From a virus (Duplodnaviria; Heunggongvirae; Uroviricota; Caudoviricetes): a stretch of 64,000 nt of DNA. The notes under the pieces were generated by a model. That model was given only the letters and a program-made list of their open reading frames with translations, did no database searches and was not told the DNA's origin. Position 1 is the stretch's first letter; every line of letters begins with the position of its first letter. Of this stretch, positions 8,223 through 62,414 are shown piece by piece. The position numbers and the translations under genes were made by a program. The DNA is taken from positions 17,335 through 81,334 of IMG/VR virus record IMGVR_UViG_3300020202_000067. One strand, given 5' to 3'.

Positions 8223-10354
8223 TGGCTAATGAGCTTTTGACGCCTGCTGGAATTCAACGTCCTGGTCATGGCCAGGACCCTGGCGTTTCTATGCGCCCAT
8301 CAACGGTCCTTCTTTCGCCTGTCAGAGACCCGATGGGTGATGCGCTCAATGAGTTTTCTAGAGATCTGTCGGGCATTGCTGCCACATTCAAAGAACTATA
8401 TAAAACTCGTCAGGACGCGGAAGACAGATCATTTGTTGACAAATATCAACTTGAGTACAATAAGCGCGTCACTCCTATTGAAACGGACGCGCTCAATGGT
8501 CCTGATTCCAGCAAGCCAGACTTTGTGAACAAGCTGGATCAGCGCCTCGCTGAGACGCAGAATTCATTAATGGAAGAGTTGCTATCCAGCGGGCAGTTCA
8601 ATCCGAGCAAGAATGGCAAGGAGGCTGCAATTCGTGCAGCTATGCAATTGCGCATTGCAGCGGCTAGGCGTTCTGCTGTAACTGCGCACAACCAACGCGT
8701 TACTAGAGTTGTTGATGAGGCAACAGCGAATGTTGGAGAAGTGGCAAGGGCTTCTGGAGCAAGTGGAGAGTTGGATGCTGGCATAGACCGAGTTGACTCT
8801 ACCATTAAGTCTCTTGAGCGCGTTCTGCCTCCGGACAAATTGCGTGAACTGCAAAAGACAGCGCGTGAGCAAGTGGTGGAGAGCGTTGTTCGCTCTCATA
8901 TTGAGAGAGGCAATTTTGCTGCCGCTCGAATGCTGCTCGATCGCAATCGCGGCTATGCCGCCAACACGACGGAAGGTGCCATTGCCCAAGCTGCGGCCAA
9001 GCACGGAGTTGATCCAGCCTACCTTGTTGCGGCAGCGCGTGCTGAGTCTTCACTCGATCCTGGGGCGAAGCCAAGGGTCGATCCTGCAACTGGCAAGCGC
9101 CCGTCGAATGCGGCTGGCATTTTCCAAATGGTTCCGGAAACAGCCAAGCAATTCGGTCTTCCAGAAGACGCGTCCACAGCGCCGGTAGAGCAACAGATTG
9201 AAGCTGGCGCAAGGTTCGCGGCGCTCAATAAGAAGGTATTGCAGCAAGCGCTCAAGCGTGATCCAACGCCTGGCGAAATGTATCTTGCGCACTTCCTCGG
9301 TGCTGGTGATGCTGTTAAGGTGCTGACTGCGCCAAAGGATCTTAGCGGCAGAGGCGTATCTCTAGACGGCTTGGTCGGCAGCAAATCAATCGCTGCCAAT
9401 AAAGCCATCTTAGATGGCAAGACGACAGACGACGTTATTGAATGGGCGAACAGAAAAATGCTGGCAGCAGGTGCTGGCGGTTCAGCCAACTTCATCAAGG
9501 AAGACACGCGCATTGCATTGCTGTCCCAGCTTGAAACGCGACAGCACCAAATGGATGTTCGCGCTAGAGAGGAAGCAAATCGGCAGACCAAGCTGATTGG
9601 CGAAGCCTTCTTGAAAGAAGCATTCACACAAGCTAACAATGGAAGGCTCAGCCCAGATTATGTCGAGCAAATCAAGCCTTGGATTTCACCGACAGAATAC
9701 AAAGGTCTGCTCTCGACCTTGGGCAAAGAAGACAATATCGATGATCAAGCTGCGATCGTGGATCTGACCACGCGCATAGACACTGAAGATCCAAATGAGT
9801 TCATGACGCGTGCAACGGACTGGATGAACAAAGGCAAACTTAAGACCGGCACCTACACTGCGATGGTTCAGCGCAATCGCACAGCGTTCAGAGACGATCG
9901 TCCTGCCAGTCCGTTCAAGTCCGGTCGTGAACTTGTCAGCACCTCTTTGGATCCTGGCGCGCTGAGCACAGCCGGACCAGAGGCTACGCAACATATGCGC
10001 GTAGCCAGAGCAAATGCATTGATTGAATTTGACCAATGGATCGAAGCCAATCCGCAGGCCAAGCGCGAAGACATCATCAATGAGGCGCAAAACATTGTGC
10101 GTCGTTATGAGCCTGTGGCGCAAGAACGCATGAAGATGGCTATTGGACTTTCTCGCTATTTCGGAGACAAGTCGCGCAATGCCATTACGATGAAAGAAGT
10201 AGAAGATGCAGAATTGGCTCTGCATCGGGACATTGAGTCGGGAAGGCTCACGCCAGCGCAGCAAGGCTTTGAAATTCGCAAACTAAAGAACTGGCGCGAG
10301 ATCATTGCGCGTGAAACCGCGCTTAAGGCGCAGCAGCCTGGACAAAGGAAATAA
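8222..10354 (+). CDS. internal virion/ejection protein with soluble lytic transglycosylase (SLT) domain (T7 gp15/gp16-like role)
   Basis: 710 aa. 'AESSLDP...PSNAAGIFQMVPETAKQFGL' (~9050-9150) matches the SLT catalytic Glu/Ser and GLMQ-type motifs. Located between the gp14-like gene and the giant ORF. Confidence 0.65.
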   Translation: MANELLTPAGIQRPGHGQDPGVSMRPSTVLLSPVRDPMGDALNEFSRDLSGIAATFKELYKTRQDAEDRSFVDKYQLEYNKRVTPIETDALNGPDSSKPDFVNKLDQRLAETQNSLMEELLSSGQFNPSKNGKEAAIRAAMQLRIAAARRSAVTAHNQRVTRVVDEATANVGEVARASGASGELDAGIDRVDSTIKSLERVLPPDKLRELQKTAREQVVESVVRSHIERGNFAAARMLLDRNRGYAANTTEGAIAQAAAKHGVDPAYLVAAARAESSLDPGAKPRVDPATGKRPSNAAGIFQMVPETAKQFGLPEDASTAPVEQQIEAGARFAALNKKVLQQALKRDPTPGEMYLAHFLGAGDAVKVLTAPKDLSGRGVSLDGLVGSKSIAANKAILDGKTTDDVIEWANRKMLAAGAGGSANFIKEDTRIALLSQLETRQHQMDVRAREEANRQTKLIGEAFLKEAFTQANNGRLSPDYVEQIKPWISPTEYKGLLSTLGKEDNIDDQAAIVDLTTRIDTEDPNEFMTRATDWMNKGKLKTGTYTAMVQRNRTAFRDDRPASPFKSGRELVSTSLDPGALSTAGPEATQHMRVARANALIEFDQWIEANPQAKREDIINEAQNIVRRYEPVAQERMKMAIGLSRYFGDKSRNAITMKEVEDAELALHRDIESGRLTPAQQGFEIRKLKNWREIIARETALKAQQPGQRK

Positions 10355-10358
10355 TTGA

Positions 10359-13300
10359 ATGGCTCCTCCGATTAAGACACCGTTCCCGGTTGCTGATTAC
10401 GCTGATCAAAATCCGACGACCATGGACATCCTCAAACAGAACGAGGAACAGATCGAATTGGCTAATGAAGGGCTAATTCCGCCGAAGAGCATGGCGGAGG
10501 AAATTGCTCCACAATTAGATGAGCTGCGTGCTTCTGAAGTCCGTCAGGCTTCACTGACTCCTGAGGACATTTTCATTCCTCCAAGCAATCCAAAAGAAGA
10601 CGACATCGCCTCGCAATATATTCAGATGGCGCAAGCACGCGACAATGACTCTGCCATTGAAGAGTTCAAGGAGCGTATGCGTGCGCGAGCGTCCACAATA
10701 GCTCCTAATGGACGACCGATGCTGCCAAATGCAGATGGGTCTGTCTCAACAGAAGAGAGCATCACGATAACAGATCCACGCATCAATGGCGGAGCACCAA
10801 CGAACATTCCTAGCATTTGGGGAGGACAGCGTCCTCCTTATAATGCTGGAACGCCTGAAGCGGAAAATTGGGCTGTTGAGAAAGCACTTGAGTCCAAGCA
10901 GCGCTTCCAATCGTATCGCTCAATCGAAGATGCTGTACAAGCCGCGCGTCAGCGCTCTTTGGAGTTAGGCAAAGCCATTGAGCGTGGCCGCCTTGAACAG
11001 CGCAGCGAAGTGAAGAAAGCTACCGACACCATCAATGCGATGGAGTCATTGATCGCGGGCAAGCCTATTAAGTCCGTGACAGAAGCGCAATCCATGACTG
11101 AACTTTTCGACATCATCATGGAACATGCTCAGAAGACTAATTGGTCTGATGCGCCTGGCGCTGTTGCCAAGGATATTGGCAAAGGCTTCTTCGTTGAAGG
11201 CGTTCCGCAGGCTGTCGGTGGCGTCAATCTGGCAGTCAAGAATACTTCACGCGCGTTGGCCGGTCTGGCTGATTGGATGACAACGAATGTTGGCGGTGAG
11301 ATCCCCGTTCCGTCAACAGGTAATAAGAAACTTGACCAAGCAATACAGCGCCCACTCGATTTCATCACCGAGTTGCTGCCTGGCGATGAAGGCATTAAGA
11401 AGGCGGAAACATTTACAGGCATCTTCATTAAGGAAGGTGCGCGCTTCCTCACCGGCTTCATCCCGCTGTTCCGTGCAGGTAAGGCGGCCGGAGCTGGCAA
11501 TATAACCACATCTATCGCTGCCGGCAGTCTGACTGATGCGATCACGCAAACGCCTGAAGAGCCGAACCTTTCTAATCTGATTGAGAAGGTTCCGCCGCTC
11601 AGAAACCCGGTGACGGAGTTTCTTGCCACAGACCCCAATGATCCTGAAGCCCTCAATCGCCTGCGTCAAGGCATTGAGGGCGCTGGCATGGGCGTTCTCA
11701 CAGAAGGTTTGCTCTGGGGAATACGCGCATTGGCCAATGCCCGTAAGGCAGTGCCAGAGCTTGAAGCGCAACGGCAATTGCATGGCGAGGTTGGTGACGG
11801 AACGGTTGTTGCTGCAACCAAGGACGAGCCTTATACCGCAGTTGGTGGAGCCAGTGCTAAAAACCCCTTCGTGCTCGACCTGACCTCAGAAGTGGCAAGA
11901 GAGGAAACTGAGCGTCGCCTGCGGGCGATCTTGACGGGACAAGCTGATGGGCCGGTGATAAAGCCTTCAACACGCCCGCTACAGGATGATTCCTTTGGCA
12001 CACGTATTGAAAAGGAAGAGGTGTTAGGCCTCATCGAGCGCAAGGCGCGGCCAGAAGAGATCTCTGCCCATCCGCTGATTCGCCGCGCAATGGAGCGACA
12101 GAAACGAGATCTTGAGGCGCCACAGATCAGGATTGAAGACATCACTCCTGAACATCGCGCGCAGCGCAAATTTGACTTTAATGGCGAGGAGGTCGTCGGT
12201 TACGACAAGGCCGTGCCGCGCCTTGCGGCTAATGCAGAAGCTTATGCTGGCTCTAACGGCGCCGCTGCGAATAAAGAAGCCATTATCCTCCTCGGCCCAC
12301 CTGCCGCTGGCAAAACAACCATTGGCGACAAGCTCGCGCGTGAGCTCAGATATGCCGTTGTTGATGCAGATGATGTGAAGGCCACGTTGCCCGAATATGC
12401 CGGTGGCGTAGGATCGACGCGCGTGCATCCGGAAAGCACGTTGATCAATGCCATGGTTCTTGAGGAGCTGGCGCGTTCCGGCAAGAACATGGTGATTCCG
12501 AAGCTCGGTCACGGCTCAGAACCAATAGTTGCCTTAGTACAAAAACTCAAGGAGCTTGGATACACGGTTGATGTCGTCAATGTTCGGATGGACGCTGAAG
12601 AAAATTACCGTCGGATGATCTCTCGGTTCATTCACACTGGCCGATTGATTGAGGAGAACTACTTTAAGCAGATCGGAGACCTTCCGACACAGACTTATGA
12701 ACGCCTCAAGAGAGAAGGATTGGTACGTGAAGCAGCCAACTACGATAACTCAACAGCAGCTCCAAAGCGCCTCGAAGCCTCAGAGCGGCTCGCAGCCGCA
12801 ATCGAGAGATCCGGAGGAGGTGGAGACGCAGCTTCAATTGGAGGCGCTGGAGCGCGCCAAGCGCCCCCGCAAATAGAGCGTCTGCGACAGGCCGCTGAGC
12901 CTGTTTACAATGACATGCTGGCGCAGCTCCGCGCCACTGGCATGAAGGAGGAAGAGGCTCTCGCCAATGCTGCTGTCGTGGCTGCACGCTATGCGGCGCG
13001 CGCCGAACGGCTAGGCACCGGCAAGACGGCGATGGATCTCTACAAGGAGTCAGGCCTGCGTGTCGAGCGGTCTGACGCTCCTCCGTCATCTGAGCGCTTC
13101 ATCGTCAATGCAGATGAACCGATGCCTTTCCGCCCAACCAAGGAGCAGACGCTTGAACAGCGTCGTGGTTGGTTTGGCACCGGTTACTGGATCAAAGATG
13201 GCAAACTGCACAAGATTGAAGAAGGCGCACTCGGTCCGCATGGCGATCATGATGGGTGGATCTCCATTGCCGATAATGCCAACAAGCTTGGAGTTGACGA

Positions 13301-33252: not shown

Positions 33253-33744
33253 TCAATTCCTCACCGGGTGAAAGTTGCCGTCGCCATACTGATACGCCTT
33301 GGGGAAGGAGAGCAGCAGCTCAACGCCCTCAAGGAAGGTTTTATTGACCAACTTTATAGCAGGCATTCTGCTGCCTGCTATAACATGGCCGAGCCAACGG
33401 TGATTGCCGTCAAGGATGTAAGGCTCCTTGCTCAGCAGGCACGGCTTGCTCAGCACGCCGGAGCCGACCAAAGCCTTAGCCTTGCGCGCGTCCACCCGCT
33501 GGTGGGCGCGCACGAGCCACGGATCAATGGTGCACTCACGGACCTCCTCGCCCTTGTCCTTTAGGAAATCAAGGAGCTCAGGCATGTCATCACCGTCAAT
33601 TTGCGGCATGACTTCACGCGGGATGTAGAACGGTTCAAACTCTCCGCCTTTGTAAAAGCGGCCAAGGAGGGAGTTGCACTCCCCGCCTTTCGGTGCATGT
33701 TGCAGGCTCATCATGGCAGGTCCGGCCTTTCCTTTGCTGTGCAT
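33253..33744 (-). CDS. ParB/sulfiredoxin-like nuclease domain protein
   Basis: 163 aa. 'EPYILDGNHRWLGHVIAG' carries the DGxHR signature of the ParB-N/Srx fold. Confidence 0.45.
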   Translation of the reverse strand: MHSKGKAGPAMMSLQHAPKGGECNSLLGRFYKGGEFEPFYIPREVMPQIDGDDMPELLDFLKDKGEEVRECTIDPWLVRAHQRVDARKAKALVGSGVLSKPCLLSKEPYILDGNHRWLGHVIAGSRMPAIKLVNKTFLEGVELLLSFPKAYQYGDGNFHPVRN

Positions 33745-34714: not shown

Positions 34715-35592
34715 TGAGCGTGAGCTCCACTCTGTACCTTGATCTCTCTGTCATAACGCTTCACCACGCTGTTATAGATACGGGACCCGACTTCATCGGC
34801 CTCCTGCTCCCATGGAGCATTCTCGTACCTAGCCTCCTGTCCGTTGACGAGGCGTCCGTTGTAGACAACGCCTTGCCGCGTCTGGCGCAAGCGACCCTGC
34901 AACATCTGTGAGACATGGACCATCTCGTGACAGAACACCGCAAGCGGCGTAGGTGCACTGAGACACTTGTCGCACTTGCCGCACCCAGACATGCTCTCAT
35001 TGAGCGTCATCATGATCTCGCCATTCGGTCCGAGAGCGGTGCTCGTGGAGCCCCGTGCATTGCCGTTGTAGCTGTCGTCATTCAGCTCGCCTGGCTCGAT
35101 GCCGAACAGCATGCGCAGAACATTTTCCGCCGGGTTGGGCGCCTTATTGTAGAAGCGAAGGATCACTTTATTTGGGAAGCGCGCGATCCAAAGCTCACGC
35201 ACGATCTCCTTGAACGCAGCTTGGTACTGCGCTTCCTTGTCCGGTGCATTTTCGATGATCAATTCCATTCTCATTCCTCCAGCAACCAGGCAACACTGAC
35301 GAAGGTCTGCACAGCCGCGACCGCAGCTTGAGCAGCATCCATACCAAGCGACACTTGCACGAGGAAGGTGCCGCTGAGCATTACGGCTAGCGCCATGTGG
35401 CGCTGCCGCTTGTTGGTGATGATCTTGCTCACTCCTCGCCTCCCAGAACCGGGCTGAGGATGATGAACGCTGCAAGTGCGCCAGCGGCCCAGGAGTGGAC
35501 GCCGTGCCCTTCCAAGAAGGCGAAGGCAAGATAGGTAAGGTGCGCTGTCTCCTCGCCCATCTTGCGAGTTGCCTTGCCTTTAATCTTTTCAA
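34711..35592 (-). CDS. HExxH zinc metallopeptidase-like protein (SprT/WLM-like); probable true start ~35276 (MRMELIIEN...)
   Basis: RBS ggaggaATGagaATG at ~35276. 'CGKCDKC...FCHEMVHVSQ' is a Cys cluster plus HExxH. The upstream 100 aa of the track ORF is low-complexity and instead overlaps two small hydrophobic ORFs. Confidence 0.4.
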   Translation of the reverse strand: MKRLKARQLARWARRQRTLPILPSPSWKGTASTPGPLAHLQRSSSSARFWEARSEQDHHQQAAAPHGASRNAQRHLPRASVAWYGCCSSCGRGCADLRQCCLVAGGMRMELIIENAPDKEAQYQAAFKEIVRELWIARFPNKVILRFYNKAPNPAENVLRMLFGIEPGELNDDSYNGNARGSTSTALGPNGEIMMTLNESMSGCGKCDKCLSAPTPLAVFCHEMVHVSQMLQGRLRQTRQGVVYNGRLVNGQEARYENAPWEQEADEVGSRIYNSVVKRYDREIKVQSGAHAQ

Positions 35593-35611
35593 TGAACTTC
35601 TTCATCTGCAT
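35429..35611 (-). CDS. small membrane protein
   Basis: ~58 aa with a C-terminal hydrophobic helix 'AAGALAAFIILSPVLGG'. Preceded by a repeat-element copy. An unlisted ~54-aa hydrophobic ORF (approx 35280-35445) lies between it and the peptidase gene. Confidence 0.35.
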   Translation of the reverse strand: MQMKKFIEKIKGKATRKMGEETAHLTYLAFAFLEGHGVHSWAAGALAAFIILSPVLGGEE

Positions 35612-35632
35612 CTCTCCATGTTGCAGGCTTCA
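35612..35632 (-). repeat. conserved early-gene leader element, copy 1
   Basis: ctctccatgttgcaggcttca on the + strand. The coding-strand TGA at its 3' end is the stop of 35630..36148. Confidence 0.7.
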
Positions 35633-36148
35633 GCACGGGTCCAGAATGACTTCGATCTCCTCGGTCAGACCTCCGTTGGGGTTGTCGGCCAAACGCGCGA
35701 AGGCGTTGGCCATCGTGTTGCCGAGCTCAGTGAGCGGCTGGCCATTGCGCTGCGCCAGCGTCACGGCCGCGTTGAACAGCGCGATCATGTAGCAGCCGGG
35801 GCAGAGCGTGCCTTCGTAGCTCTTGCCCTGCCAACGCGCACGATAGCGCATGGCTCGGTCGATGGTCGTGGCCAGTTCAGCGCCGAAGTTTCCACGTGTC
35901 TTGTCAGCGATGTGCACGAGGTCCCTGTCGCCGCCATAGACGCGGCCGTCGGTGCCATTGCGAGTGAGTTCGTTCGTCATGTAGCTCTCCATGTTGCAGG
36001 CTTCATAAACCAAACCACATCGGCTTGATTGCATCAACAACAGCCAACCAGAATTCCTTCTGATCAGCAAGGTCTGCGCCGCCATAGGCGTCGTAGTAGT
36101 TGGCATTGGACAACGCTTTCTTGTGCGCCTCTTCAGCGCCAAGAGCAT
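35630..36148 (-). CDS. hypothetical protein (probable start 35980, 'MTNELTRNG...', 117 aa)
   Basis: The repeat element with SD ggagag sits immediately upstream of the ATG at 35978-35980. The N-terminal 55 aa of the track ORF just read through the element. Confidence 0.35.
   Translation of the reverse strand: MLLALKRRTRKRCPMPTTTTPMAAQTLLIRRNSGWLLLMQSSRCGLVYEACNMESYMTNELTRNGTDGRVYGGDRDLVHIADKTRGNFGAELATTIDRAMRYRARWQGKSYEGTLCPGCYMIALFNAAVTLAQRNGQPLTELGNTMANAFARLADNPNGGLTEEIEVILDPC
35981..36005 (-). repeat. conserved early-gene leader element, copy 2
   Basis: gtagctctccatgttgcaggcttca. Contains the stop of 36003..36263 and precedes the ATG at 35980. Confidence 0.7.
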
Positions 36149-36263
36149 TGATTAGCTGCTGCGCTCGCGCATCAGCCTCCTGGTAATCAGCAAGTTTCAT
36201 GCAGCCTCCGGCTTGAAAGGGTTGTAGCCCATCGCTTTTTCTTCTTCGAACGAAGGTGCCCAT
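36003..36263 (-). CDS. hypothetical small protein (probable start ~36201 'MKLADYQEADAR...')
   Basis: RBS ggagg 5 nt upstream. ATGA-coupled to the 36197..36622 stop. Confidence 0.3.
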   Translation of the reverse strand: MGTFVRRRKSDGLQPFQAGGCMKLADYQEADARAQQLINALGAEEAHKKALSNANYYDAYGGADLADQKEFWLAVVDAIKPMWFGL

Positions 36264-36622
36264 GACTCCACCTTGCTGCGTCCATAGTACAGCTTGCGCA
36301 GCAGGTCGTCGCGCGTTTCCACCGGCTCAACTGCGAGCGCGGCGAGCACTTCCTTATAGCGCTCCGCACCCCACAGCTTCTTCGCGATGTCATGGTCGAA
36401 GATGAGGCTGTCAGCAGAGGGGATCTCCTCGACGATGGTGTAATCGAAGCCGTCGCGCTTCTCGGTCACAACGTAGACCAAGTGATGCGCCACGATCACG
36501 TCGGTGACACCGAAGGCTTCGCGGATGATGTCCTTGAAAAGGTCTGCATGTTCAGCGTTGCGATCATTTTCCCAGGGTCCGGCGAGGCGCATGCCCTGCG
36601 GCGTGAAGTCATCCTTCATCAT
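36197..36622 (-). CDS. hypothetical protein
   Basis: 141 aa. Repeat-element variant (ggagcg) upstream. Confidence 0.35.
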   Translation of the reverse strand: MMKDDFTPQGMRLAGPWENDRNAEHADLFKDIIREAFGVTDVIVAHHLVYVVTEKRDGFDYTIVEEIPSADSLIFDHDIAKKLWGAERYKEVLAALAVEPVETRDDLLRKLYYGRSKVESWAPSFEEEKAMGYNPFKPEAA

Positions 36623-36650
36623 TTCATCGCTCCATGTTGCAGGCTTTAAA
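36623..36650 (-). repeat. conserved early-gene leader element, copy 3 (variant)
   Basis: ttcatcgctccatgttgcaggctttaaa. The stop is TAA instead of TGA and ggagcg replaces ggagag. Confidence 0.6.
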
Positions 36651-37290
36651 TGTATTCCATCTGCTTGGGGCTCAGCGGGCGCGCGTACTTAGGCGCAGGG
36701 TCCTTGAGCCACTCGATGAGTTGCTTGCGCAGTGACTTCTTGAAGTCGCTACGCAGGTTGGTGGTGAGCAGCTTGCGGTAGCGCGCCCACTCGTAGTATG
36801 AGCGACGGCGCAGACGCAGAAGAGGCACATAGCTCTTGAGGCCGATCTTAGAGGCGATCTCCTTGATGTCCTTACGCGCCATGCGGAGCTCAGCCGCCTT
36901 CTGAGCGCGCTGCTGAGCACGATGCCTGGCTCTCTGTTCCTTCTGCCAAGCTTCGTATTTCGCCAGCGTCTCAGCGTCAGCATCAACCGACGTAGCGAAC
37001 AATGGGTAGGTCCACCCGCGCGTCGTGGCAAACATGACCGTGAACGGCTCGCCCTTTTCATCGTCCCAAATGAGACAAAAGAAGTCGCTGTCCCAAGCGC
37101 CGTTGTGCTCCCACTCCTTGAGCACGCGACCTTCGTATTTCTTCTTGGTCCAGTAGAGCCGCGTGACGGGCCACTCTTCACCCTTGAAGGGTCCGTCATA
37201 TTGCTTCTCGGTTCCTTGCGAGTGGCCCATGGTCGCACCCGGCTCCCATGGCTCTGCGAAGACGATGAGTGCCATGATCAATCGCTCCAC
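36646..37290 (-). CDS. hypothetical protein, Trp-rich N-domain plus basic C-terminal tail (probable start 37275 'MALIVF...')
   Basis: RBS ggagcg 7 nt upstream of the ATG at 37273-37275. Confidence 0.35.
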   Translation of the reverse strand: MERLIMALIVFAEPWEPGATMGHSQGTEKQYDGPFKGEEWPVTRLYWTKKKYEGRVLKEWEHNGAWDSDFFCLIWDDEKGEPFTVMFATTRGWTYPLFATSVDADAETLAKYEAWQKEQRARHRAQQRAQKAAELRMARKDIKEIASKIGLKSYVPLLRLRRRSYYEWARYRKLLTTNLRSDFKKSLRKQLIEWLKDPAPKYARPLSPKQMEYI

Positions 37291-37613
37291 TTCTCGATGT
37301 AAGCGTTCGTCTCCTTGAGCACATCCTCAAGGTTGGTGGTATAGTCGGCGAGGCAGTCCTCGACGTTGCCCCAGATGAACTGCACCCAGCCTTGATAGCC
37401 GCGCTTATCAACATTGACCGGTATCTTGGTGACGTAGAACCGATCCTCGTCGGTCGTGAACATTACATTAAGAATGGCTTCTACATCCTTGCTGCAAATC
37501 AGCACATCCTCATCGCCTTCATTCACGGTGATGAAGTAGCCAGCAGCAATCAATTCTTCCGCTGCCTTGCGCGCGATGTTGCGCTCAAGCTCTTGATCCC
37601 ATTTGCGGCTCAT
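37278..37613 (-). CDS. hypothetical acidic protein
   Basis: 111 aa. RBS ggagg upstream. Confidence 0.35.
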   Translation of the reverse strand: MSRKWDQELERNIARKAAEELIAAGYFITVNEGDEDVLICSKDVEAILNVMFTTDEDRFYVTKIPVNVDKRGYQGWVQFIWGNVEDCLADYTTNLEDVLKETNAYIEKWSD

Positions 37614-37691
37614 GTCAGAACCTCCAGAAGAACGGCGCTGCGAACAGCGCGACCATTGCGAGCAGTCCTGCGGTTGCGATGAGTTGCTTGA

Positions 37692-37874
37692 TCACTCAGC
37701 CCACCCCTGCAGCTCGCCGGTGTTCTTGGAGCGGACGGCGACGGCCAACCCACCCTGCGGCGCATCTTCGATCTTCCAGGTCTGATAGGGCATGGTGCTC
37801 TCACGAGCAAAGGTGCGCGCCCACTTGAGCGCGGCTTCGAAGTCGTTGAAGGTCTTGACAGGCATCTTGTTCAT
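37692..37874 (-). CDS. hypothetical small protein
   Basis: 60 aa. Canonical repeat element immediately upstream. Confidence 0.35.
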   Translation of the reverse strand: MNKMPVKTFNDFEAALKWARTFARESTMPYQTWKIEDAPQGGLAVAVRSKNTGELQGWAE

Positions 37875-37900
37875 TTCAGCTCTCCATGTTGCAGGCTTCA
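37875..37900 (-). repeat. conserved early-gene leader element, copy 4 (canonical)
   Basis: ttcagctctccatgttgcaggcttca, flanked by the stop of 37898.. and the start of ..37874. Confidence 0.75.
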
Positions 37901-38296
37901 GAAACCGTTGGTGATGCGCTCCAGCGCCTCAGCCCATGCCGCCGTGCGGTCGGCGCTCATCGCATTCGACACCGGCGAAGTCGAGCGCTCCGGCCACCGC
38001 GCGCCGCGCAGCACCAGCCGCTTGATTTCGGACAACGCAGCTTCCGGCTTGTACTCCGGCAGCTCCGTCCATGCCTTGAGGGTCAGCGCAACCTCGAACC
38101 GTGCCGCAGCCTCCATGGCATTCTGCGCCCACTCGAAGGCGTAGGCGGGATTGGACTTGAAGTTTTCCTCGAACTTGCTGAGCGCGCCGCGCACCGCTGA
38201 GTTGGAAAATTCTTCGATGAGGCTGTCGATCTTATCTTGCAGTTCCATTTCTCTCTCCATGTTGCAGGCTTCAGGCGTCCAGGGCAGTTCAGTCAT
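37898..38296 (-). CDS. hypothetical helical protein (probable start 38248 'MELQDKIDSL...')
   Basis: Repeat element upstream. The extra N-terminal residues in the track ('PEACNMERE') are the element itself read in-frame. Confidence 0.35.
   Translation of the reverse strand: MTELPWTPEACNMEREMELQDKIDSLIEEFSNSAVRGALSKFEENFKSNPAYAFEWAQNAMEAAARFEVALTLKAWTELPEYKPEAALSEIKRLVLRGARWPERSTSPVSNAMSADRTAAWAEALERITNGF
38249..38273 (-). repeat. conserved early-gene leader element, copy 5
   Basis: ttctctctccatgttgcaggcttca. Confidence 0.7.
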
Positions 38297-38574
38297 CCAA
38301 GGTTGAATGGCTTGCGTCCTCCCCTTGTGGCATTGTCGATCTTGTCCATGACCGCGTAGAGAGCAGCCTGCTCTTTCTTCAGCGCCTTGCCGCGTGCACT
38401 CTTGAGCACGCTGTTGACCAGCCGTCGGCTATAGCGCTGGGTCTTGCTCTTGTTGATCGCGGCTTCAATGAGCTCGTCGATCTCCTTATCGATCACGTCA
38501 CAACGTGTTTCGGCGAGGCGGTAGATGCCCCACGTGGTGTTGATCGCTGCCTTCTCTTCCTTCGTTAGTTTCAT
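38293..38574 (-). CDS. hypothetical basic protein
   Basis: 93 aa. Repeat element upstream. Confidence 0.35.
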   Translation of the reverse strand: MKLTKEEKAAINTTWGIYRLAETRCDVIDKEIDELIEAAINKSKTQRYSRRLVNSVLKSARGKALKKEQAALYAVMDKIDNATRGGRKPFNLG

Positions 38575-38605
38575 TTCAGCTCTCCATGTTGCAGGCTTGA
38601 ATTCA
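38575..38605 (-). repeat. conserved early-gene leader element, copy 6 (4-nt insertion variant)
   Basis: ttcagctctccatgttgcaggcttgaattca. Confidence 0.65.
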
Positions 38606-38806
38606 CTTCATCGCTTCTTCAAAGAAGTTCGCCCACATGTCCGGCTGCCTCTCCGCCTTGGCCGCAGCCTCTCGGACCTTCGCGCCGGAGAAGGGCGGAT
38701 ACTTCTTGGAGCGCGGCTTCTTGTACGTGTCGGTCGCCTCGTCGTAGCGGTAGTTGCCGAATTGGCGCAGCATGCGCTCGAACTCTTGCAGCATCGTCGG
38801 TTTCAT
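38603..38806 (-). CDS. hypothetical small protein
   Basis: 67 aa. Truncated repeat-element variant upstream. Confidence 0.35.
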   Translation of the reverse strand: MKPTMLQEFERMLRQFGNYRYDEATDTYKKPRSKKYPPFSGAKVREAAAKAERQPDMWANFFEEAMK

Positions 38807-38832
38807 TTCAGCTCTCCATGTTCAAGCAGGCC
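38807..38832 (-). repeat. conserved early-gene leader element, copy 7 (degenerate 3' half)
   Basis: ttcagctctccatgttcaagcaggcc. Confidence 0.55.
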
Positions 38833-39049
38833 ATTCTTCGATCAAGGCGACGAATTCGTCCCCATCCATCATCGCGAGCTTTTCGAGTTGATTGTTGCTG
38901 AACTTGCCGCTGTCTTCGAGTTGATCGAAGACTTCCTGACCCAGCTCCAACCACGACTTGTTGAGCAACTTGCCGGGCTCGGACGGATCGATCTTCTTGA
39001 CTTCAGTGCTCACACCTTGGTAACGGAAAACATATGTCTTCGTCTTCAT
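38822..39049 (-). CDS. hypothetical small acidic protein; first gene after the structured non-coding hub
   Basis: 75 aa. The conserved half-element (ttcagctctccatg) lies immediately upstream. Confidence 0.35.
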   Translation of the reverse strand: MKTKTYVFRYQGVSTEVKKIDPSEPGKLLNKSWLELGQEVFDQLEDSGKFSNNQLEKLAMMDGDEFVALIEEWPA

Positions 39050-39063
39050 TTCAGCTCTCCATG
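39050..39063 (-). repeat. conserved early-gene leader element, copy 8 (5' half only, abutting hairpin)
   Basis: ttcagctctccatg, then diverges into the 39061-39118 stem-loop. Confidence 0.5.
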
Positions 39064-39118
39064 AGACAACAGGAAAGCGGCGGCAGGGTTGCGCCCCGTC
39101 GCCGCTTGATCTCTTGTC
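39061..39118 (-). other. nested long stem-loop at the edge of the 390-bp non-coding hub
   Basis: gagacaa...agcggcg gcagggttgcgccccgt cgccgct...ttgtctc. Outer arms GAGACAA/TTGTCTC and inner arms AGCGGCG/CGCCGCT. No U-tract in the leftward direction. Confidence 0.4.
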
Positions 39119-39379
39119 TCCAATTTTACTCTCTTGCCCCCGCTAGCAGCGTCTGTCGGCTAAGCGATCACGGCACCGTCGCGGTGGCGCGTCGCTCGCT
39201 CGGGATGCAGGACCGCCCGGTGAGCATGTTGCTCATCAACGCGAGAGGTCGCTACGCTCTTGCGTTGATGAACTCCCGCTGGAGACCACCTCTCGCTGCC
39301 CAACTGTTGTTGTCTTATTGGCTTGGTGGCGAGGGTACCAGTCAGAAGGACCTTTTATGCTTGGGCGTTCCGACCCGCT

Positions 39380-39450
39380 TTCTTTCTTTTTCAACCTGTG
39401 GCCGGATTATGCCTGAAATGATAAAGAAAGAAAACATATTTTTTCAACAG
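39380..39450 (-). promoter_or_regulatory. AT-rich sigma70-like promoter candidate directing leftward transcription into the small-gene cluster
   Basis: Minus-strand reading TTGAAAaaatatgttttctttctTTATCAtttcaggCATAAT. Locally AT-rich in an otherwise ~58% GC genome. Immediately downstream of the VRR-NUC stop. Confidence 0.3.
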
Positions 39451-39453
39451 TGA

Positions 39454-39894
39454 TTACATGGACTTAGCGTAAATCAGGTCGTGGTAGACCTGGTCCCAAT
39501 CCCACTGCGCAGGTCCGCCAGAGTTTTCGAAAATCCAAAAACGCTTCGGCACGCCAACAAGTCCGGACGTGGCAAGATCGCGTATAGCCGCGCCTCTCAA
39601 CAGAATGAGATCATCACGCGCTTCACGTCGTTTGCCAGCCTTCGCCAGACGACGCACAGCGATGAAGACGCGACCACCATTGCGTATGCGACGCTCTATC
39701 CAACCCACCTGCGATGGCTGCACTTCACACGCGCTCGCCTCACAGCGCTTGTTCTCGATCCAACCTTCTGTGCCATCATGGCAGTAGTTCATGTCGGGCA
39801 CTCCTTGGCCCGTGCTCCATGTCTCCACCGCCTGCCAATGCACCATCGGTAGATGTTGTTGAAATAGTTGTCGCAGTCCCCCGTCGGTCTTCAC
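39454..39894 (-). CDS. VRR-NUC / PD-(D/E)xK family nuclease
   Basis: 146 aa. 'QGVPDMNYCHDGTEGWIENK' is G-x-PD...E-x-K. N-terminal helix 'LRQLFQQHL' fits the VRR-NUC layout. Confidence 0.45.
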   Translation of the reverse strand: MKTDGGLRQLFQQHLPMVHWQAVETWSTGQGVPDMNYCHDGTEGWIENKRCEASACEVQPSQVGWIERRIRNGGRVFIAVRRLAKAGKRREARDDLILLRGAAIRDLATSGLVGVPKRFWIFENSGGPAQWDWDQVYHDLIYAKSM

Positions 39895-40099: not shown

Positions 40100-42929
40100 T
40101 TTCTCCGAGGTACTTCACAGCCTTGATCTTGATCATGCGGAAGTCAGGCGGAACTGAGCCCTTGATTGCATAGAGCGACTTGCCTACTCGACCTTGCTCC
40201 ACGATCTGCCGACCAATGCGCTCGAAGTCGTAGCGGCTCACCTTGCAAAAGATCATGTCGGTGTCGTCCTTAATGAACAAGTTCAACGCAGCCGTCGGCC
40301 CATTGACCGCGTAGCCGCGCTTCATGACGTTGACGGCTTCGTTCTCATCCTTGGGCGCGATCTTGGAAGCGACGCCGATGATGACAACATCCTTGAACGC
40401 ACCGTCCGCTTGCACATCAATGACTGGCGTTGGCGCAGTGACAATGTTGATTGCTCCAAGATCTGGATGCAGCTCCTTCACCTTGTCAGCTATTGGGAAC
40501 AACGTGTCAATGTCGGTCTTGGCGTTGTCAAGTCGCTTCTTCAAGGTGGCACGCAGCGGTGTTCCTGAGGACCTCGCTTCCATGATCTCGCGGACGGTTG
40601 CTGAACCGATGCCCTTGATCGAGGTGAGAGGACCCACAAGGATCGTCCTCTCACCTTTCTTGATTGGCATCCACTTGTCTGTGGAGTGGTCCGGGTCAAA
40701 GGCGAGATAGTCAATGCCTTCTTCCTTCAACTCGCGCAGCAGCGCAATCTGTTTTGCTGGATCGCTCTCAGCATCTAATGTGGCAGCGGCAAACTCAACA
40801 GGATAATGCGCCTTGAGCCAACAGCAATAATACGACACGAGACCGTAGGCGACAGCGTGCGAACGGTTAAAAGCCCAAGAGCCGAAGGTGTTGATCTGAT
40901 CCCAAACAAGGCGCGCTGTGTCTTCATCGATCCCATTTTTCAATGCTCCATCCTTGAACTTCAACCAGTAGCGTTCGAAGAACTCATTGCCGAGACGGCC
41001 AGACATCGCCTTACGAATAGCAGACGTGTCCTCCCAGGACATGCCTCCCATCTCACGCACGATCTTCATCACCTGTTCCTGATAGATGGTGATGCCGAGC
41101 GTCTCCTTGGTGAGCTCGGTAAGCATAGGATGATAAGAAGATATCGGCTCCTTGCCGAGCTTACGTCGCACCCAGGACCCAGCGCCGCCCGTGGCCATTG
41201 GTCCAGGGCGCGCAAGCGCTGTAATCGAGATGATGTCTTCTAGGTGCGTCACCTCAATCTGCTTCACTAGCGATTGCAACGCCTGACCAGCAAATTGGAA
41301 CACACCAGCGAAGCGGTGCTGACTGAGAACATTGAATGCCGCCGCATCGTCCAATGGCAATCGATCAAAGAAGCGGAAATTTCCCTCTTCGCCGATCAGC
41401 TCCAATGCGCGCTCGAAGATTGAAAGCTGCGTCAGACCCAGAGCGTCGATCTTGAGTAGGTTCAGATCCTCAGCATCCTTCTTGTCGCACATGGCTGCGT
41501 TGGTGCGGCTGTCTACAGCGACATATTCAAGAATAGGCTCATCGGTGACAAGAACGCCAGCCGCGTGTTGCGAGGACGTTGTCGGGTGGCCTTCCATGCG
41601 GGAAGCCATCATGGCTTCTGGAAATTCATTCAGAAGAGACTGACCATTGATTGTCTCCTTGAGCGTGTCCTCAAGTTGCTGCATGGCGCGTGAGTCACCG
41701 GAGGAGCGTTCGATGATGCCGTCAAGCGCCTTGTCAACCTTCCACTTTGGTATGCGCAAGGAGATGCCAGCTTGCTGCAACGCGCTCTTGGGGCCGTACA
41801 TCATCACGGTTCCCAGCCGAGCCATGCGCTCCTCGCCATATTTCTCGGCAATGTACTTGAACACCTCCTCACGCTGCTTGTCAGAGAAGTCAACGTCGAT
41901 ATCTGGCAAATCCGCGCGATTGATATCGATGAAACGCTCAAAGATCAGTCCGTAAGGGATGGGATCTACTGTAGTGATATCGAGTAGGTAGCACACGAGA
42001 CTTCCACAAGAGGAGCCACGTGCCGGTCCGACAGCCATGCGGTCTCGAGCCCAACCAACAATATCTGAGAGGATGTAGAAATAGTCTTCAAACTTCTTGT
42101 CGGCGATAAGCTTAAGCTCCCGATCAAGACGCTCAGCATAGACCTTGTCTTTCAAATTGATGGAGCGTTTCTTCGCTCCTTCAATACACAATTGACGCAG
42201 CGTCTTCTTGCGCTCAGGCTTCAGGAGCGTCGCCTTCCTCAGTTCAGCTCGACATTGCTTGATTGCGTTATCTCTGGCCTTGATGGCAGCAGCCTTGTCC
42301 CGTTCACTAGCAAACCAGACAGCCTCCATCCATTCGTCATCATCAATGATCCATTGCGGATATGTTTGAGTGCCAGCTCTCTTCCCGAGAGCGACACGGT
42401 AAAGCTCAAGATCGGCTTGGCGAGGAAAGACATTGTCGCCGCTAGCGATGAAGCGGAACCCAGCAGCCTTCGCTTGTTTGTAGAGACCAATTGGCGTTGA
42501 TGGTGATAGAGCAACATAGAGATCCTTGTCCTTTTTCTTCACACGCTCAAGCTGCAGACGCTCGCCAGCGATCTTGATCACGCCCTGTGCGGCAAGCGCC
42601 TGCTTGTAAAGCAAGCTCGGCTCACGGCCAGGATTGGCTGTTGCAAGCGCAATGAGCTCATGGATAGAACGCAATGAGTCCTTGGCGAAGAATGTCCAGT
42701 AGTCTGGGCTTGGCCGCTTCTCCCCCAGAGAAGAGACCACTGCTAGTTCTACACCATAGATCGGTCTAAGCTCGTGCTTTGCGCACAGCTTAGACCAACG
42801 ATTAAATCCGAAGGCGCTCGTCCTGTCTGAAATCGGCGCGGCCTTCCACTTGATCTCCTTCAGACGCTCTATAATGTCTGGCAGGTGCCCCACCGCAGTG
42901 CGGAAGGAATATCCCGTGCGTATTCTCAT
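40089..42929 (-). CDS. dnaE: DNA polymerase III alpha subunit (DnaE-type), compact 946 aa with degenerate PHP domain
   Basis: 'GPARGSSCGSLVCYLLDITTVDPIPYGLIFERFIDINRADLPDIDVDF' is the DnaE palm signature (cf. [23 protein letters not shown]...MPDIDIDF). The N-terminus 'MRIRTGYSFRTAVG' lacks the PHP His residues. Confidence 0.75.
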   Translation of the reverse strand: MRIRTGYSFRTAVGHLPDIIERLKEIKWKAAPISDRTSAFGFNRWSKLCAKHELRPIYGVELAVVSSLGEKRPSPDYWTFFAKDSLRSIHELIALATANPGREPSLLYKQALAAQGVIKIAGERLQLERVKKKDKDLYVALSPSTPIGLYKQAKAAGFRFIASGDNVFPRQADLELYRVALGKRAGTQTYPQWIIDDDEWMEAVWFASERDKAAAIKARDNAIKQCRAELRKATLLKPERKKTLRQLCIEGAKKRSINLKDKVYAERLDRELKLIADKKFEDYFYILSDIVGWARDRMAVGPARGSSCGSLVCYLLDITTVDPIPYGLIFERFIDINRADLPDIDVDFSDKQREEVFKYIAEKYGEERMARLGTVMMYGPKSALQQAGISLRIPKWKVDKALDGIIERSSGDSRAMQQLEDTLKETINGQSLLNEFPEAMMASRMEGHPTTSSQHAAGVLVTDEPILEYVAVDSRTNAAMCDKKDAEDLNLLKIDALGLTQLSIFERALELIGEEGNFRFFDRLPLDDAAAFNVLSQHRFAGVFQFAGQALQSLVKQIEVTHLEDIISITALARPGPMATGGAGSWVRRKLGKEPISSYHPMLTELTKETLGITIYQEQVMKIVREMGGMSWEDTSAIRKAMSGRLGNEFFERYWLKFKDGALKNGIDEDTARLVWDQINTFGSWAFNRSHAVAYGLVSYYCCWLKAHYPVEFAAATLDAESDPAKQIALLRELKEEGIDYLAFDPDHSTDKWMPIKKGERTILVGPLTSIKGIGSATVREIMEARSSGTPLRATLKKRLDNAKTDIDTLFPIADKVKELHPDLGAINIVTAPTPVIDVQADGAFKDVVIIGVASKIAPKDENEAVNVMKRGYAVNGPTAALNLFIKDDTDMIFCKVSRYDFERIGRQIVEQGRVGKSLYAIKGSVPPDFRMIKIKAVKYLGEIDG

Positions 42930-43375
42930 GCAGCCCTCTTCCCCTTGCGCTTATACCTTGGAATGCCAACTTCGCCTTCAACGACGCTGACCAATGCAAC
43001 AGAGCAATCACAACGCTTAGCAATTTCCTGCTGGCTCAATCCCTGCTTCGCCAAGGCGATGATCTTGGCGCGGCGCTCTGGATCATCTGTCTTCGGGCGC
43101 TTCTCAAGGCCAGCGATCCTTGCATAACGTAACACTGTATTGCGGGAGCATCCGTATTTCTTCTGAATATCATTCACCGGAACGCCAGCCTTGTAGTCTG
43201 CCACCACATGCTCAAAGCGCACCAAACGATTGGCGCGCTCATGAGTGAATGAAAAGATGCGCTTCACTTGCGCAATGAATTCAAGGAACGGCTTCACCGC
43301 CTTCCTGGTTCTCAGATACTCCGCCGCATCCTTCAGTGTGAACAGCATCATCTGGATCCTTCTTATTACGCTCAT
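42926..43375 (-). CDS. tandem-HTH DNA-binding protein (probable start ~43351 'MMLFTLKD...')
   Basis: Two HTH-like segments 'VNDIQKKYGCSRNTVLRYARIAG' and 'LSQQEIAKRCDCSVALVSVVEG'. RBS aagaagga before the internal ATGs. ATGA-coupled to the dnaE start. Confidence 0.4.
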   Translation of the reverse strand: MSVIRRIQMMLFTLKDAAEYLRTRKAVKPFLEFIAQVKRIFSFTHERANRLVRFEHVVADYKAGVPVNDIQKKYGCSRNTVLRYARIAGLEKRPKTDDPERRAKIIALAKQGLSQQEIAKRCDCSVALVSVVEGEVGIPRYKRKGKRAA

Positions 43376-52933: not shown

Positions 52934-53305
52934 TCATGAAATTGCAACCTCAAATGTGGGCCATCGAACTTGGCGCTTGGGTTGATATGGAAACGTCACT
53001 GGAACATTGCTGTCGATGTCATACACGCGTCCAGTTCTAGCATCTTTGAATACAGAACCACAACGCTTGTTCTGAAACAATGGGCCATCATCTGAAATTT
53101 CCATCCACTCATCGTCCTCACCCGTGAGCGGAGAGAGCGGACCGCCCGCAAGCAATTGCATGAACACCGGAGCGACAGCCGCGACGGCTCCTCCACTGTC
53201 CCATTGATCGAGAAACTTTTCCAAGATCTCAATCATGACTGCGCTGTCTTCCTCGCCGAAGTTGATGCGCTCAAGCTCAGCCTTGGCTTGATCGATGATG
53301 CTCAT
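52934..53305 (-). CDS. hypothetical acidic protein
   Basis: 123 aa ORF. Confidence 0.3.
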   Translation of the reverse strand: MSIIDQAKAELERINFGEEDSAVMIEILEKFLDQWDSGGAVAAVAPVFMQLLAGGPLSPLTGEDDEWMEISDDGPLFQNKRCGSVFKDARTGRVYDIDSNVPVTFPYQPKRQVRWPTFEVAIS

Positions 53306-61489: not shown

Positions 61490-61789
61490 ATGAAATTGAA
61501 ATATTTAACAAAGCGTGAACGCCAAGTTTTTGATGCGTGCGTTGGCGGCTTGCTCGACAAGGAAATTGCCCACACTCTCGATATCAAGTCAGAGACAGTC
61601 AAGGTGCACAAACACCACATTTACAAAAAGCTAGGATTGAGGAACAAAGCTGAACTCGCCTTCATACGTGGAAAACAGGAAGCCGTTTCAATCCTCGAAC
61701 TCATTGCCTTGACCGAATTTGCCGGCGATGAATCAGTCAGCAGGCTTGTGGCCAAATTCAAGGAGAAAGTCGAAAATGGCCTGGGTTGA
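61490..61789 (+). CDS. LuxR/FixJ-type HTH transcription regulator (DNA-binding domain only)
   Basis: 'LTKRERQVFDACVGGLLDKEIAHTLDIKSETVKVHKHHIYKKLGLRNKAEL' is the canonical GerE/LuxR HTH. Confidence 0.65.
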   Translation: MKLKYLTKRERQVFDACVGGLLDKEIAHTLDIKSETVKVHKHHIYKKLGLRNKAELAFIRGKQEAVSILELIALTEFAGDESVSRLVAKFKEKVENGLG

Positions 61790-62414
61790 AAGTGAGGTTG
61801 CAGAGCTCAAGCGACTTGTTGAAGACACGGATCTTTCACGCAAAGAGATCGCTGCGCTCTTGGGCAAGACCAAGGGCATGGTTTCCTCCAAGCTCTGGGC
61901 CATGGGTCTGACGCTGAAGGATGAGACGTGGAATGCTGAAAGAGAACAGGCTCTGAGAGAACTCGCTCTCGCTGGAAGAACTGCCAAGGACATCGCCAAG
62001 GAGCTTGGCAATGGGATCACGCGCAATGCTGTGGTTTCAAAAGCTGCAAGAATGAAGATCTCGCTCAACGGCGATCTCAAGCAACGCAATGTGCACGGCA
62101 AGCACCCCACCATGAAAGAGATCGCCGAGCGCTCTTCTGCGCGCTACAAGCCGCGAGAGCGTGAGGTTCCAGGGATCATATTCAGACATTGTCAGTGGCC
62201 AATCGGAGACCCTCTTGAGGAGGGCTTCCATTTCTGCTGCCAGCCTGTCATGGAACCGAAGAGGATGCCGAACGCTCGGCGCGAGACCCGCTATCCTTAC
62301 TGCGAGGCGCATTGCTGTCGAGCGTATGGCGGATGGACCTACGAGGAATATGTTGAAGCCTTTGGTGAAGAGAAGGCCAAGAAGTACTGGGCGCAGAAGA
62401 GGCAGCGCCAATGA
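61719..62414 (+). CDS. gcrA: GcrA-like cell-cycle regulator homolog (probable start 61776 'MAWVESEV...')
   Basis: Two GcrA-type N-terminal HTH repeats ('LSRKEIAALLGKTKGMVSSKLWAMGL', 'TAKDIAKELGNGITRNAVVSKAARMKI'). C-terminal 'CQWPIGDPLEEGFHFCC' is the GcrA signature. Strong RBS aaggagaaag before 61776. Confidence 0.65.
   Translation: MPAMNQSAGLWPNSRRKSKMAWVESEVAELKRLVEDTDLSRKEIAALLGKTKGMVSSKLWAMGLTLKDETWNAEREQALRELALAGRTAKDIAKELGNGITRNAVVSKAARMKISLNGDLKQRNVHGKHPTMKEIAERSSARYKPREREVPGIIFRHCQWPIGDPLEEGFHFCCQPVMEPKRMPNARRETRYPYCEAHCCRAYGGWTYEEYVEAFGEEKAKKYWAQKRQRQ

Follow-up and report, generated by a model that had tools for sequence, protein, structure and literature searches.

What is the short sequence that recurs in front of one small gene after another in an uncultured Caudoviricetes phage, and what does it do there? 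The phage is known from IMG/VR record IMGVR_UViG_3300020202_000067; the stretch analyzed here, called the window, is 64,000 nt long (positions 17,335 to 81,334 of the record), and the element lies on its minus strand between 35.6 and 39.1 kb. All coordinates are given on the plus strand. The element is neither a promoter nor a ribozyme. We tentatively favor, with a probability of about 0.45, its reading as a phage-private, ribozyme-less intercistronic junction module for translation (re)initiation, which evolves in concert within a hypervariable gene array.

An 81-kb contig carries the gene of the window for the DNA polymerase III alpha subunit (PolIII-alpha). The genome was closed with DNA fetched around genes near both window ends: it is a complete circle of ~81.16 kb, consisting of the window, L144 11096–18766, and L142 1–9493 (L with a number is our handle for a locus). 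The relatives used for comparison were 60 IMG/VR loci and three Logan contigs with PolIII-alpha at 47–68% identity, the nearest PolIII-alpha among them being 68% identical.

The repeated element

The query GCCTGCAACATGGAGAGCTGA, with up to 3 mismatches, had 6 matches in the window, on the minus strand only (35608–35628, 35981–36001, 36624–36644, 37876–37896, 38249–38269, and 38576–38596). The number expected by chance was 0.01, and 0 of 100 dinucleotide shuffles reached 6. Two further partial copies, at 38820 and 39063, were picked up with the core CATGGAGAG. The total is eight minus-strand copies, six of them full, in the block of 35.6–39.1 kb, plus a ninth, degenerate copy; for the latter, ~0.03 chance matches of 13/14 nt were estimated in 81 kb. 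All eight to nine sites sit in one 5.4-kb stretch of the ~81-kb genome. The repeat described in the initial annotation, six full and two partial copies, is real and its coordinates agree with ours; the genome-wide motif scan proposed there confines the copies to one array, with none in the 17 kb of the genome beyond the window. The copies are listed below in the order of transcription, with the genes (a to q) that they precede or separate.

39047..39063, minus strand: copy 1, partial (right half only), CATGGAGAGCTGAAATG, 17.5 bits; precedes gene a
38804..38831, minus strand: copy 2, GCCTGC-TTG-AACATGGAGAGCTGAAATG, with a 3-nt insertion in the left half; precedes gene b
38572..38600, minus strand: copy 3, full, TCAAGCCTGCAACATGGAGAGCTGAAATG; precedes gene c
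38246..38273, minus strand: copy 4, full core, spacer AGAGAA, internal ATG in frame; precedes gene d
37872..37900, minus strand: copy 5, full, consensus; precedes gene e
36620..36648, minus strand: copy 6, full core, TAA stop, GGAGCGATGAA; precedes gene i
35978..36005, minus strand: copy 7, full core, spacer AGCTAC, internal ATG in frame; precedes gene k
35603..35632, minus strand: copy 8, full core, spacer AGATGCAG; precedes gene l
33696..33713, minus strand: ninth copy, degenerate, left half only, TGATGAGCCTGCAACATG (ccaTGATGAGCCTGCAACATG); p/q gene junction

The element spans 26–29 nt and consists of a stop codon, a 13-nt linker AAGCCTGCAACAT, a GGAGAG Shine–Dalgarno (SD) sequence, and a start codon. 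Across the six full copies no change was seen in the 17-nt core, AAGCCTGCAACATGGAG (0/102 positions), whereas the 6–8-nt spacer from GGAG to ATG carries 9/42 edits (Fisher p = 7.8e-6). The distance from GGAGAG to ATG is 7 nt, and 4–8 nt in variant copies. All three reading frames are closed directly ahead of the start codon. The leading TGA/TAA is the stop codon of the upstream gene in copies 5–8; in copy 2 the stop of gene a lies within the left half of the element, immediately upstream of ACATGG, and in copy 3 the upstream stop precedes the element by 5 nt. The upstream stop of copy 4 is 44 nt ahead, and the element would sit within an open reading frame (ORF) if gene d began at 38296.

The element also contains an internal ATG. 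It opens the mini-ORF M-E-S-stop in copies 1, 2, 3, and 5 (ATG GAG AGC TGA A ATG). In copy 6 the mini-ORF reads M-E-R-stop and in copy 8 M-E-R-C-R-stop; these two likewise close no later than where they overlap the start. Copies 4 and 7 have the internal ATG in the frame of the gene itself; the initial annotation likewise counted two in-frame copies. The anatomy given there (stop codon, internal ATG, SD, and start) is borne out by the gene map and by independent gene calls.

No significant local structure was found by folding at 7/8 copies (z from −1.4 to +1.5). Rfam gave no match over 35000–39600 at E ≤ 10 and none over the whole genome at the gathering threshold. Sigma-70 −35/−10 hexamers were absent from every copy. 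A ribozyme in disguise was rejected on the empty Rfam search and the lack of structure at 7/8 copies.

The gene array and the junction modules of related phages

The chain of genes on the minus strand was derived from six-frame analysis.

39049>38822, minus strand: gene a, 75 aa; after copy 1
38806>38603, minus strand: gene b, 67 aa; after copy 2
38574>38293, minus strand: gene c, 93 aa; after copy 3
38248>37898, minus strand: gene d, 116 aa (116 aa also in the independent call); after copy 4
37874>37692, minus strand: gene e, 60 aa; after copy 5
37695>37615, minus strand: gene f, 26 aa; GTGA overlap
37613>37278, minus strand: gene g, 111 aa; 1-nt gap after f
37275>36646, minus strand: gene h, 209 aa; 2-nt gap after g
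36622>36197, minus strand: gene i, 141 aa; after copy 6
36200>36003, minus strand: gene j, 65 aa; ATGA overlap
35980>35630, minus strand: gene k, 116 aa; after copy 7
35605>35429, minus strand: gene l, 58 aa; after copy 8
35432>35271 and 35274>34711, minus strand: genes m and n, 53 aa and 187 aa; GTGA/ATGA overlaps

The same starts, i.e., the ATG that follows the element, were called independently in other assemblies of this phage. Copies were found only at junctions of non-overlapping neighbors, and the genes without a copy are mostly joined by ATGA/GTGA overlaps. All-vs-all BLASTP within the array gave no match below E = 0.1, in line with the earlier claim that the flanking proteins are unrelated. 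The array proteins have no known function; those of genes d, g, and h belong to PHROGs of unknown function. These are small accessory genes, probably expressed early. The third-position GC content of the array genes (35600–38300), 0.69–0.78, is the highest in the window; that of the major capsid gene is similar (0.74), and most other genes have 0.45–0.65. Such raised values are compatible with high expression or with a distinct origin.

Two features precede the array.

39407..39447, minus strand: promoter-like motif TTGAAA-18-TATCAT (sigma-70-like match 10/12), then a T-rich tract and TTCAGGCATAAT
39064..39406, minus strand: structured non-coding leader of ~350 nt (minimum free energy −161.8 kcal/mol, z = −4.47)

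The T-rich tract with TTCAGGCATAAT is conserved in L148, L147, L034, and L046, and TTCAGGCATAA was found once in the window and in L144 (L142 1–9493 was outside this search). The leader ends with a terminator-like GC hairpin (39077–39105, window z = −4.04), followed by a U-rich run (39064–39076) that adjoins copy 1. The sister phages share the layout of PolIII-alpha, a gene of ~150 aa, a non-coding gap of 470–600 nt, and a small-gene array; the gap lies at the equivalent place in L146, L147, and L148, and in L148 it ends in a hammerhead. The leader could be an antitermination leader or a non-coding RNA.

Many of the PolIII-alpha relatives have a repeated junction element of their own in this array. 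The elements of L013 are type II hammerheads, with 7 Rfam Hammerhead_II matches above the gathering score; L148 has 3 such matches and one more hammerhead recognized by eye. A motif survey found a hammerhead core, a short tail, and a ribosome-binding site (RBS) in L004, L007, L013, L021/22, L029/59, L050, L057, and L148. The RBS behind these hammerheads is of the same kind as in the element (CAUGGAGAG...; L004 reads GGAGAGCAGAAAUG), and the junction RBS of L148 reads CUGAUGAGccagaccaCAUGGAGAGAGAAGAUG vs. CAUGGAGAGAGAAAUG in copy 4 of our phage. Two hammerhead-II-like units of L050 (17301–17374 and 18264–18337) were missed by Rfam; they read CCGAUGAG, with U4 changed to C. L007 contains, at 9300–11850, four canonical-looking hammerhead copies with a GAUC/GAUC stem II, which score below the Rfam gathering threshold.

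Other relatives carry modules of a different kind. In L053 (13975–18228; on the same contig as L156), 8 junction repeats are composed of GGAAGCUCUAACGGUGAGAGC, a variable hairpin, and GCUCGAUCCGCCAGCGCUUCC. Each forms an irregular hairpin of ~60 nt in which the internal loops are conserved and 5 pairs covary; the 3' part can also be drawn as another hairpin, CCAGCG-CUUC-CGCUGG. These repeats had no Rfam match at E ≤ 1 and occupy the positions held by hammerheads in sister phages; they are a candidate new structured RNA, possibly self-cleaving. The module of L146 and L147 (L146 15490–15546; L147 11600–11657, 12550–12613, and 14160–14232) is built of a GC-rich hairpin (GCGCCGC..GCGGCGC), then CCAGGGTTCAACTGG, a small hairpin resembling a tRNA T-arm, and an RBS, and has no Rfam match. 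Private junction modules are also present in L052 and L035.

For most array genes the relatives have no homolog. Orthologs of genes i, l, and n occur in L147 (56%, 47%, and 31% identity, respectively) behind other junction modules and in permuted order; thus, the junction module is a property of the genome and not of the gene. We infer that junction modules evolve in concert within each genome. The gene h family is scattered over unrelated phages, where a repeated sigma-70 promoter + RBS cassette stands ahead of each small gene; gene h homologs, tried as a route to the element, lead to these unrelated promoter-cassette phages instead.

The two halves of the element differ in their distribution. 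The right half, GGAGAGCTGAAATG, with up to 2 mismatches, occurs at 24 SD + ATG sites in the relatives (sites read as gene starts) vs. 7.4 expected, and is unused elsewhere in this genome. The left half showed no enrichment in the relatives. Exact 17/18-mer scans of IMG/VR, metagenomes, and GTDB genomes gave single-copy matches at chance level and none in multiple copies; close relatives sharing the element were sought in this way and none emerged. The initial annotation had considered that related phages might lack the repeat entirely; this holds for the left half, which is private to the phage, and fails for the right half, which belongs to a family-wide initiation habit. In L010 (2112–2126) and L032 (3846–3860), a MazG-like gene (...GEAGEACNILKKL...) contains 15 nt identical to part of the left half, TGAAGCCTGCAACAT, with ~0.002 such matches expected by chance. 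It is probably a coincidence, because our phage has no MazG gene.

The favored reading and its rivals

The junction module that we favor would hand ribosomes from one cistron to the next and recruit new ones, so that each unrelated gene obtains a standard, strong initiation site. The genes would be carried on a single long transcript made by the host RNA polymerase (RNAP), starting at the upstream promoter-like motif and running through the leader. The element may be regarded as the ribozyme-free counterpart of the sister modules composed of a structured RNA, a linker, and an RBS, many of which are type II hammerheads. Concerted evolution would proceed by copying or conversion between junctions and so account for the identity of the left half; through the homology between the direct repeats, genes could be gained, lost, and reordered.

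The left half may itself be a stub of the 3' end of a hammerhead (CUGA[N]GAG-CCAGCC-AACA), with the UGA of the core reused as a stop codon. Hammerheads of the L013/L148 type end 3' in CUGA[U/A]GAG-CCAGCC-AACA, which (c)UGAAGCCUGCAACAU of the left half resembles, and tails of this type take ranks 4, 5, 8, 11, 14, and 22 among 1132 windows upstream of RBSs (Mann–Whitney p = 0.0025). This origin is suggestive only, and we regard it as somewhat doubtful. The element cannot self-cleave and is at most such a 3' stub. It reads CUGAAGCC, so A9 of the hammerhead core is missing.

Several points weigh against the junction module. The 13 invariant nt upstream of the SD are unexplained by translation alone and fit a sequence-specific trans factor equally well. 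The frame pattern of the mini-ORF is within chance (simulation, joint P ~0.14), and selection on the mini-ORF was rejected on this value; the ORF is not kept in relatives. The unpaired probability of the element is 0.41, the same as at the other initiation regions of the phage (0.41); an unstructured landing pad was rejected, as accessibility equals that of control gene starts. In essence, a single tail family underlies the similarity to a hammerhead stub. One linear junction of L148 looks alike (26/30), yet the model built from the copies of this phage alone does not recover it (E > 10), and its homology was rejected. No close relative or strain variant displays recombination at the element: other assemblies covering the array region are 100% identical, and the two that cover other regions have 4 and 1 mismatches. 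Finally, the translational role is a prediction from the nucleotide sequence.

Of the rival explanations, a phage promoter ahead of each gene, of T7/SP6 type or dependent on a phage sigma factor, is scarcely credible. The ~20 conserved nt that run into GGAGAG are superficially like T7-like promoters, which end in GGGAGA, and the initial annotation had proposed a promoter of this type while seeing no phage RNAP gene in the window. The latter observation stands: the search was extended to the complete ~81-kb genome, no single-subunit or virion RNAP gene was found, and the T7-type reading is therefore rejected. An N4-type virion RNAP hidden in the 2994-aa protein was also rejected, as this T7 gp16-like internal virion protein has no match to the N4 enzyme in PDB. 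The sole sigma-like protein is a 99-aa fragment resembling region 4 alone, −35/−10 boxes are absent, transcription from GGAGAG would leave an 11-nt leader, and a separate promoter-like motif, conserved in the family, lies ~350 nt upstream of the block. A T7-type unit would be expected at every start including that of the first gene, whereas copy 1, where a promoter is most needed, has no left half. The same feature suits a trans-acting factor that recognizes the 17-nt core on the mRNA, since copy 1 has no upstream cistron to separate. Such a factor might be an endoribonuclease, which would cleave the polycistronic mRNA at every junction as a protein-dependent substitute for the sister hammerheads, or a translational repressor that shuts off the entire array together, as T4 RegA does. 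This reading is unlikely in our estimate; it accords with the strictly invariant core beside a variable spacer, with a sequence private to the phage, as expected under co-evolution with a phage factor, and with the same positions being held by self-cleaving ribozymes in sister phages. The last point also lends indirect weight to the processing site and the translational-regulator site that the initial annotation had named as alternatives. However, no recognizable endoribonuclease or RNA-binding protein was found among the scanned proteins, and no complementary RNA in the 81-kb genome or the leader; an RNA partner in trans was rejected because the leader pairs no better than its own shuffles and the sole complement in the genome is the antisense of the copies. 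Private homogenized modules are moreover the rule in sister phages, even for self-sufficient hammerheads, and invariance alone therefore does not call for a trans factor. The narrower proposal that the core is the address of a phage-specific endoribonuclease or repressor which functionally replaces the sister hammerheads is more doubtful still. RNA processing would leave discrete RNA 5' ends inside AAGCCUGCAACAU; primary ends there would instead indicate a promoter.

Two further explanations place the function in the DNA. The element could be a cassette-exchange site, its direct repeats serving as homology at which phage or host recombination inserts, deletes, and shuffles small genes in the manner of the T4 promoter-early stem-loop (PeSL), with incidental translation signals. 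The array is hypervariable (the 60 PolIII-related loci hold no homolog of the 14 proteins a–n), its gene order is permuted relative to L147, the gene h family is spread over unrelated phages, the junction type is specific to the genome and not the gene, and the conserved part stops at the SD, giving way to gene-specific spacers. Nevertheless, for homologous recombination a repeat of 17–29 nt is short, neither recombinants nor strain variants were seen, the promoter and stem-loop that define PeSL are absent, and the copies point to expression by keeping strictly to one strand and to an exact register of stop, SD, and start; this explanation is rather improbable. Improbable to a greater degree is a DNA operator of the stoperator type, at which a monomeric phage repressor would block RNAP elongation and switch the array off. 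The site is indeed asymmetric and always oriented the same way with respect to transcription, and it is found at stop codons where the intergenic gaps are short. A 149-aa protein of the phage with a double helix–turn–helix (HTH) (42926–43375) could be such a repressor, GerE-like and GcrA-like regulators are encoded as well, and Cluster A mycobacteriophages provide a precedent (PMC9283540). Yet the copies are limited to one 3.5-kb block and not genome-wide, the site overlaps the SD and is continuous with the family-wide initiation region, and sister phages place RNA structures at the same junctions, which indicates biology at the RNA level. There was also no integrase or other sign of a temperate lifestyle among the genes examined. 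The double-HTH protein has no informative structural or family match; it was rejected as a specific binder, being conserved, among the fetched flanks, in L146 only.

The genome and related systems

The genome has a podovirus-like gene set including tail tube A and B, an SLT protein, and the 2994-aa gp16-like internal virion protein. PolIII-alpha, primase, SNF2 helicase, ThyX, and GcrA-like, GerE-like, and NusG-like regulators are also encoded; the large ORFs are those of tail tube B, the SLT protein, the internal virion protein, PolIII-alpha, primase, and the SNF2 helicase. A GerE/LuxR-type HTH protein (99 aa) adjoins the GcrA-like regulator (212 aa) at 61490–62414 of the window, plus strand. 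The GcrA-like protein suggests an alphaproteobacterial host, which we presume from where GcrA occurs. A NusG/RfaH-like protein (PF02357; PHROG "transcription antiterminator") is encoded at L144 13851–14348, i.e., at ~66.8–67.3 kb of the genome, beyond the window; its gene has a 550-nt gap in front and lies upstream of the terminase region. This gene suggests antitermination controlled by the phage. A Tad3-like protein (PF25185) and an HNH endonuclease belong to one leftward gene cluster (window 52934–53305, minus strand; L144 29–400); from the family name we presume an anti-defense role. PolIII-alpha of the two closest sister phages (L146 10001–13675, L147 6533–10261) carries an intein-like insertion (PF14890) and is 1224–1242 aa long, vs. 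946 aa here.

The element is a new form within the known class of repeated start-associated or gene-boundary sequences. The initial annotation had compared it with the PeSL boundaries of gene cassettes in T4-type phages, reportedly described by Arbiol and colleagues in 2010. The comparison is upheld only loosely, for the hypervariable, permuted array: both repeats stand at boundaries of small, variable early genes, here with turnover and reordering. It fails for the unit itself, which has neither sigma-70 hexamers and promoter nor stem-loop, and at which no recombination was observed. The order is permuted relative to L147, the relatives are too distant for mapping of breakpoints, and the strain assemblies are identical.

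The synthetic bicistronic design (BCD), a translational coupler reportedly introduced by Mutalik and colleagues in 2013, is similar in that the next gene's SD is contained in a very short ORF, whose stop lies 1 nt ahead of the following ATG. Real genes end in tight junctions of this kind in L147 (ATG GAG ATC TGA ATG). Unlike in BCD, no separate SD serves the mini-ORF of the element; its frame pattern is within chance, and it is not kept in relatives (L148). The leader-ORF layout of BCD is present; coupling would require that the leader ORF be translated.

Repeated promoter + RBS cassettes stand before the small early genes of the SPO1 host-takeover module. L153 and L154, in which gene h homologs occur, likewise place a standard expression signal before each small early gene of unknown function. 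Their cassettes are ~60 nt long with TTGACA/TATATT boxes, whereas the element of our phage has no transcription signals and one upstream promoter-like motif would serve the array.

The closest likeness in layout is with the start-associated sequences (SAS) of Cluster K mycobacteriophages, which are 13 bp long, occur over half the genome and cluster-wide, and have no proven function (Pope et al. 2011, PMC3203893). Both are short asymmetric repeats with an SD core a few nt before the ATG of many unrelated non-structural genes, in one orientation; the upstream stop sometimes lies inside the repeat, and conservation exceeds the pairing with 16S rRNA. The SD core of SAS stands 3–7 nt before the start, and GGAGAG stands 4–8 nt before it here. 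Unlike SAS, our element has 17–29 conserved nt, is restricted to one 3.5-kb array, and has a left half private to one phage; only the right half recurs in relatives, in place of cluster-wide conservation, and no inverted repeat like that of the extended SAS (ESAS) accompanies it. Stoperators of Cluster A, which the phage immunity repressor binds, differ in being many and genome-wide, compared with eight to nine sites in 5.4 kb.

Clustered hammerheads flank single genes in phages and prophages, including alphaproteobacterial ones, and were proposed to divide long transcripts into mRNAs of the length of single genes (Perreault et al. 2011, PMC3088659); according to a 2019 review (PMC6765202), this role is still unproven. 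The element shares with type II hammerheads (RF02276) the intercistronic slots in a syntenic array, the kind of RBS, and the genome-specific homogenized version. It differs in that GAAA and stems I and III are absent, the CUGANGA core is incomplete, and Rfam gives no signal even at E ≤ 10.

Repeats before phage early genes, such as SAS, PeSL, and promoter cassettes, are known, but little is understood of what they do. Compact "insulating" junctions of this kind could also be useful in synthetic operons. The phages compared here form a series in which a syntenic, fast-evolving array is joined by hammerheads, by other private RNAs, or by a linear linker. If the element is only a coupler, ribozymes would be dispensable at these junctions. 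If the linear element acts like the ribozymes, a new trans-acting processing or control system would have been identified. Should a trans factor recognize the core, cis-ribozymes, structured RNAs, and a linear protein site would be interchangeable solutions to one problem, and the role of clustered phage hammerheads would become directly testable.

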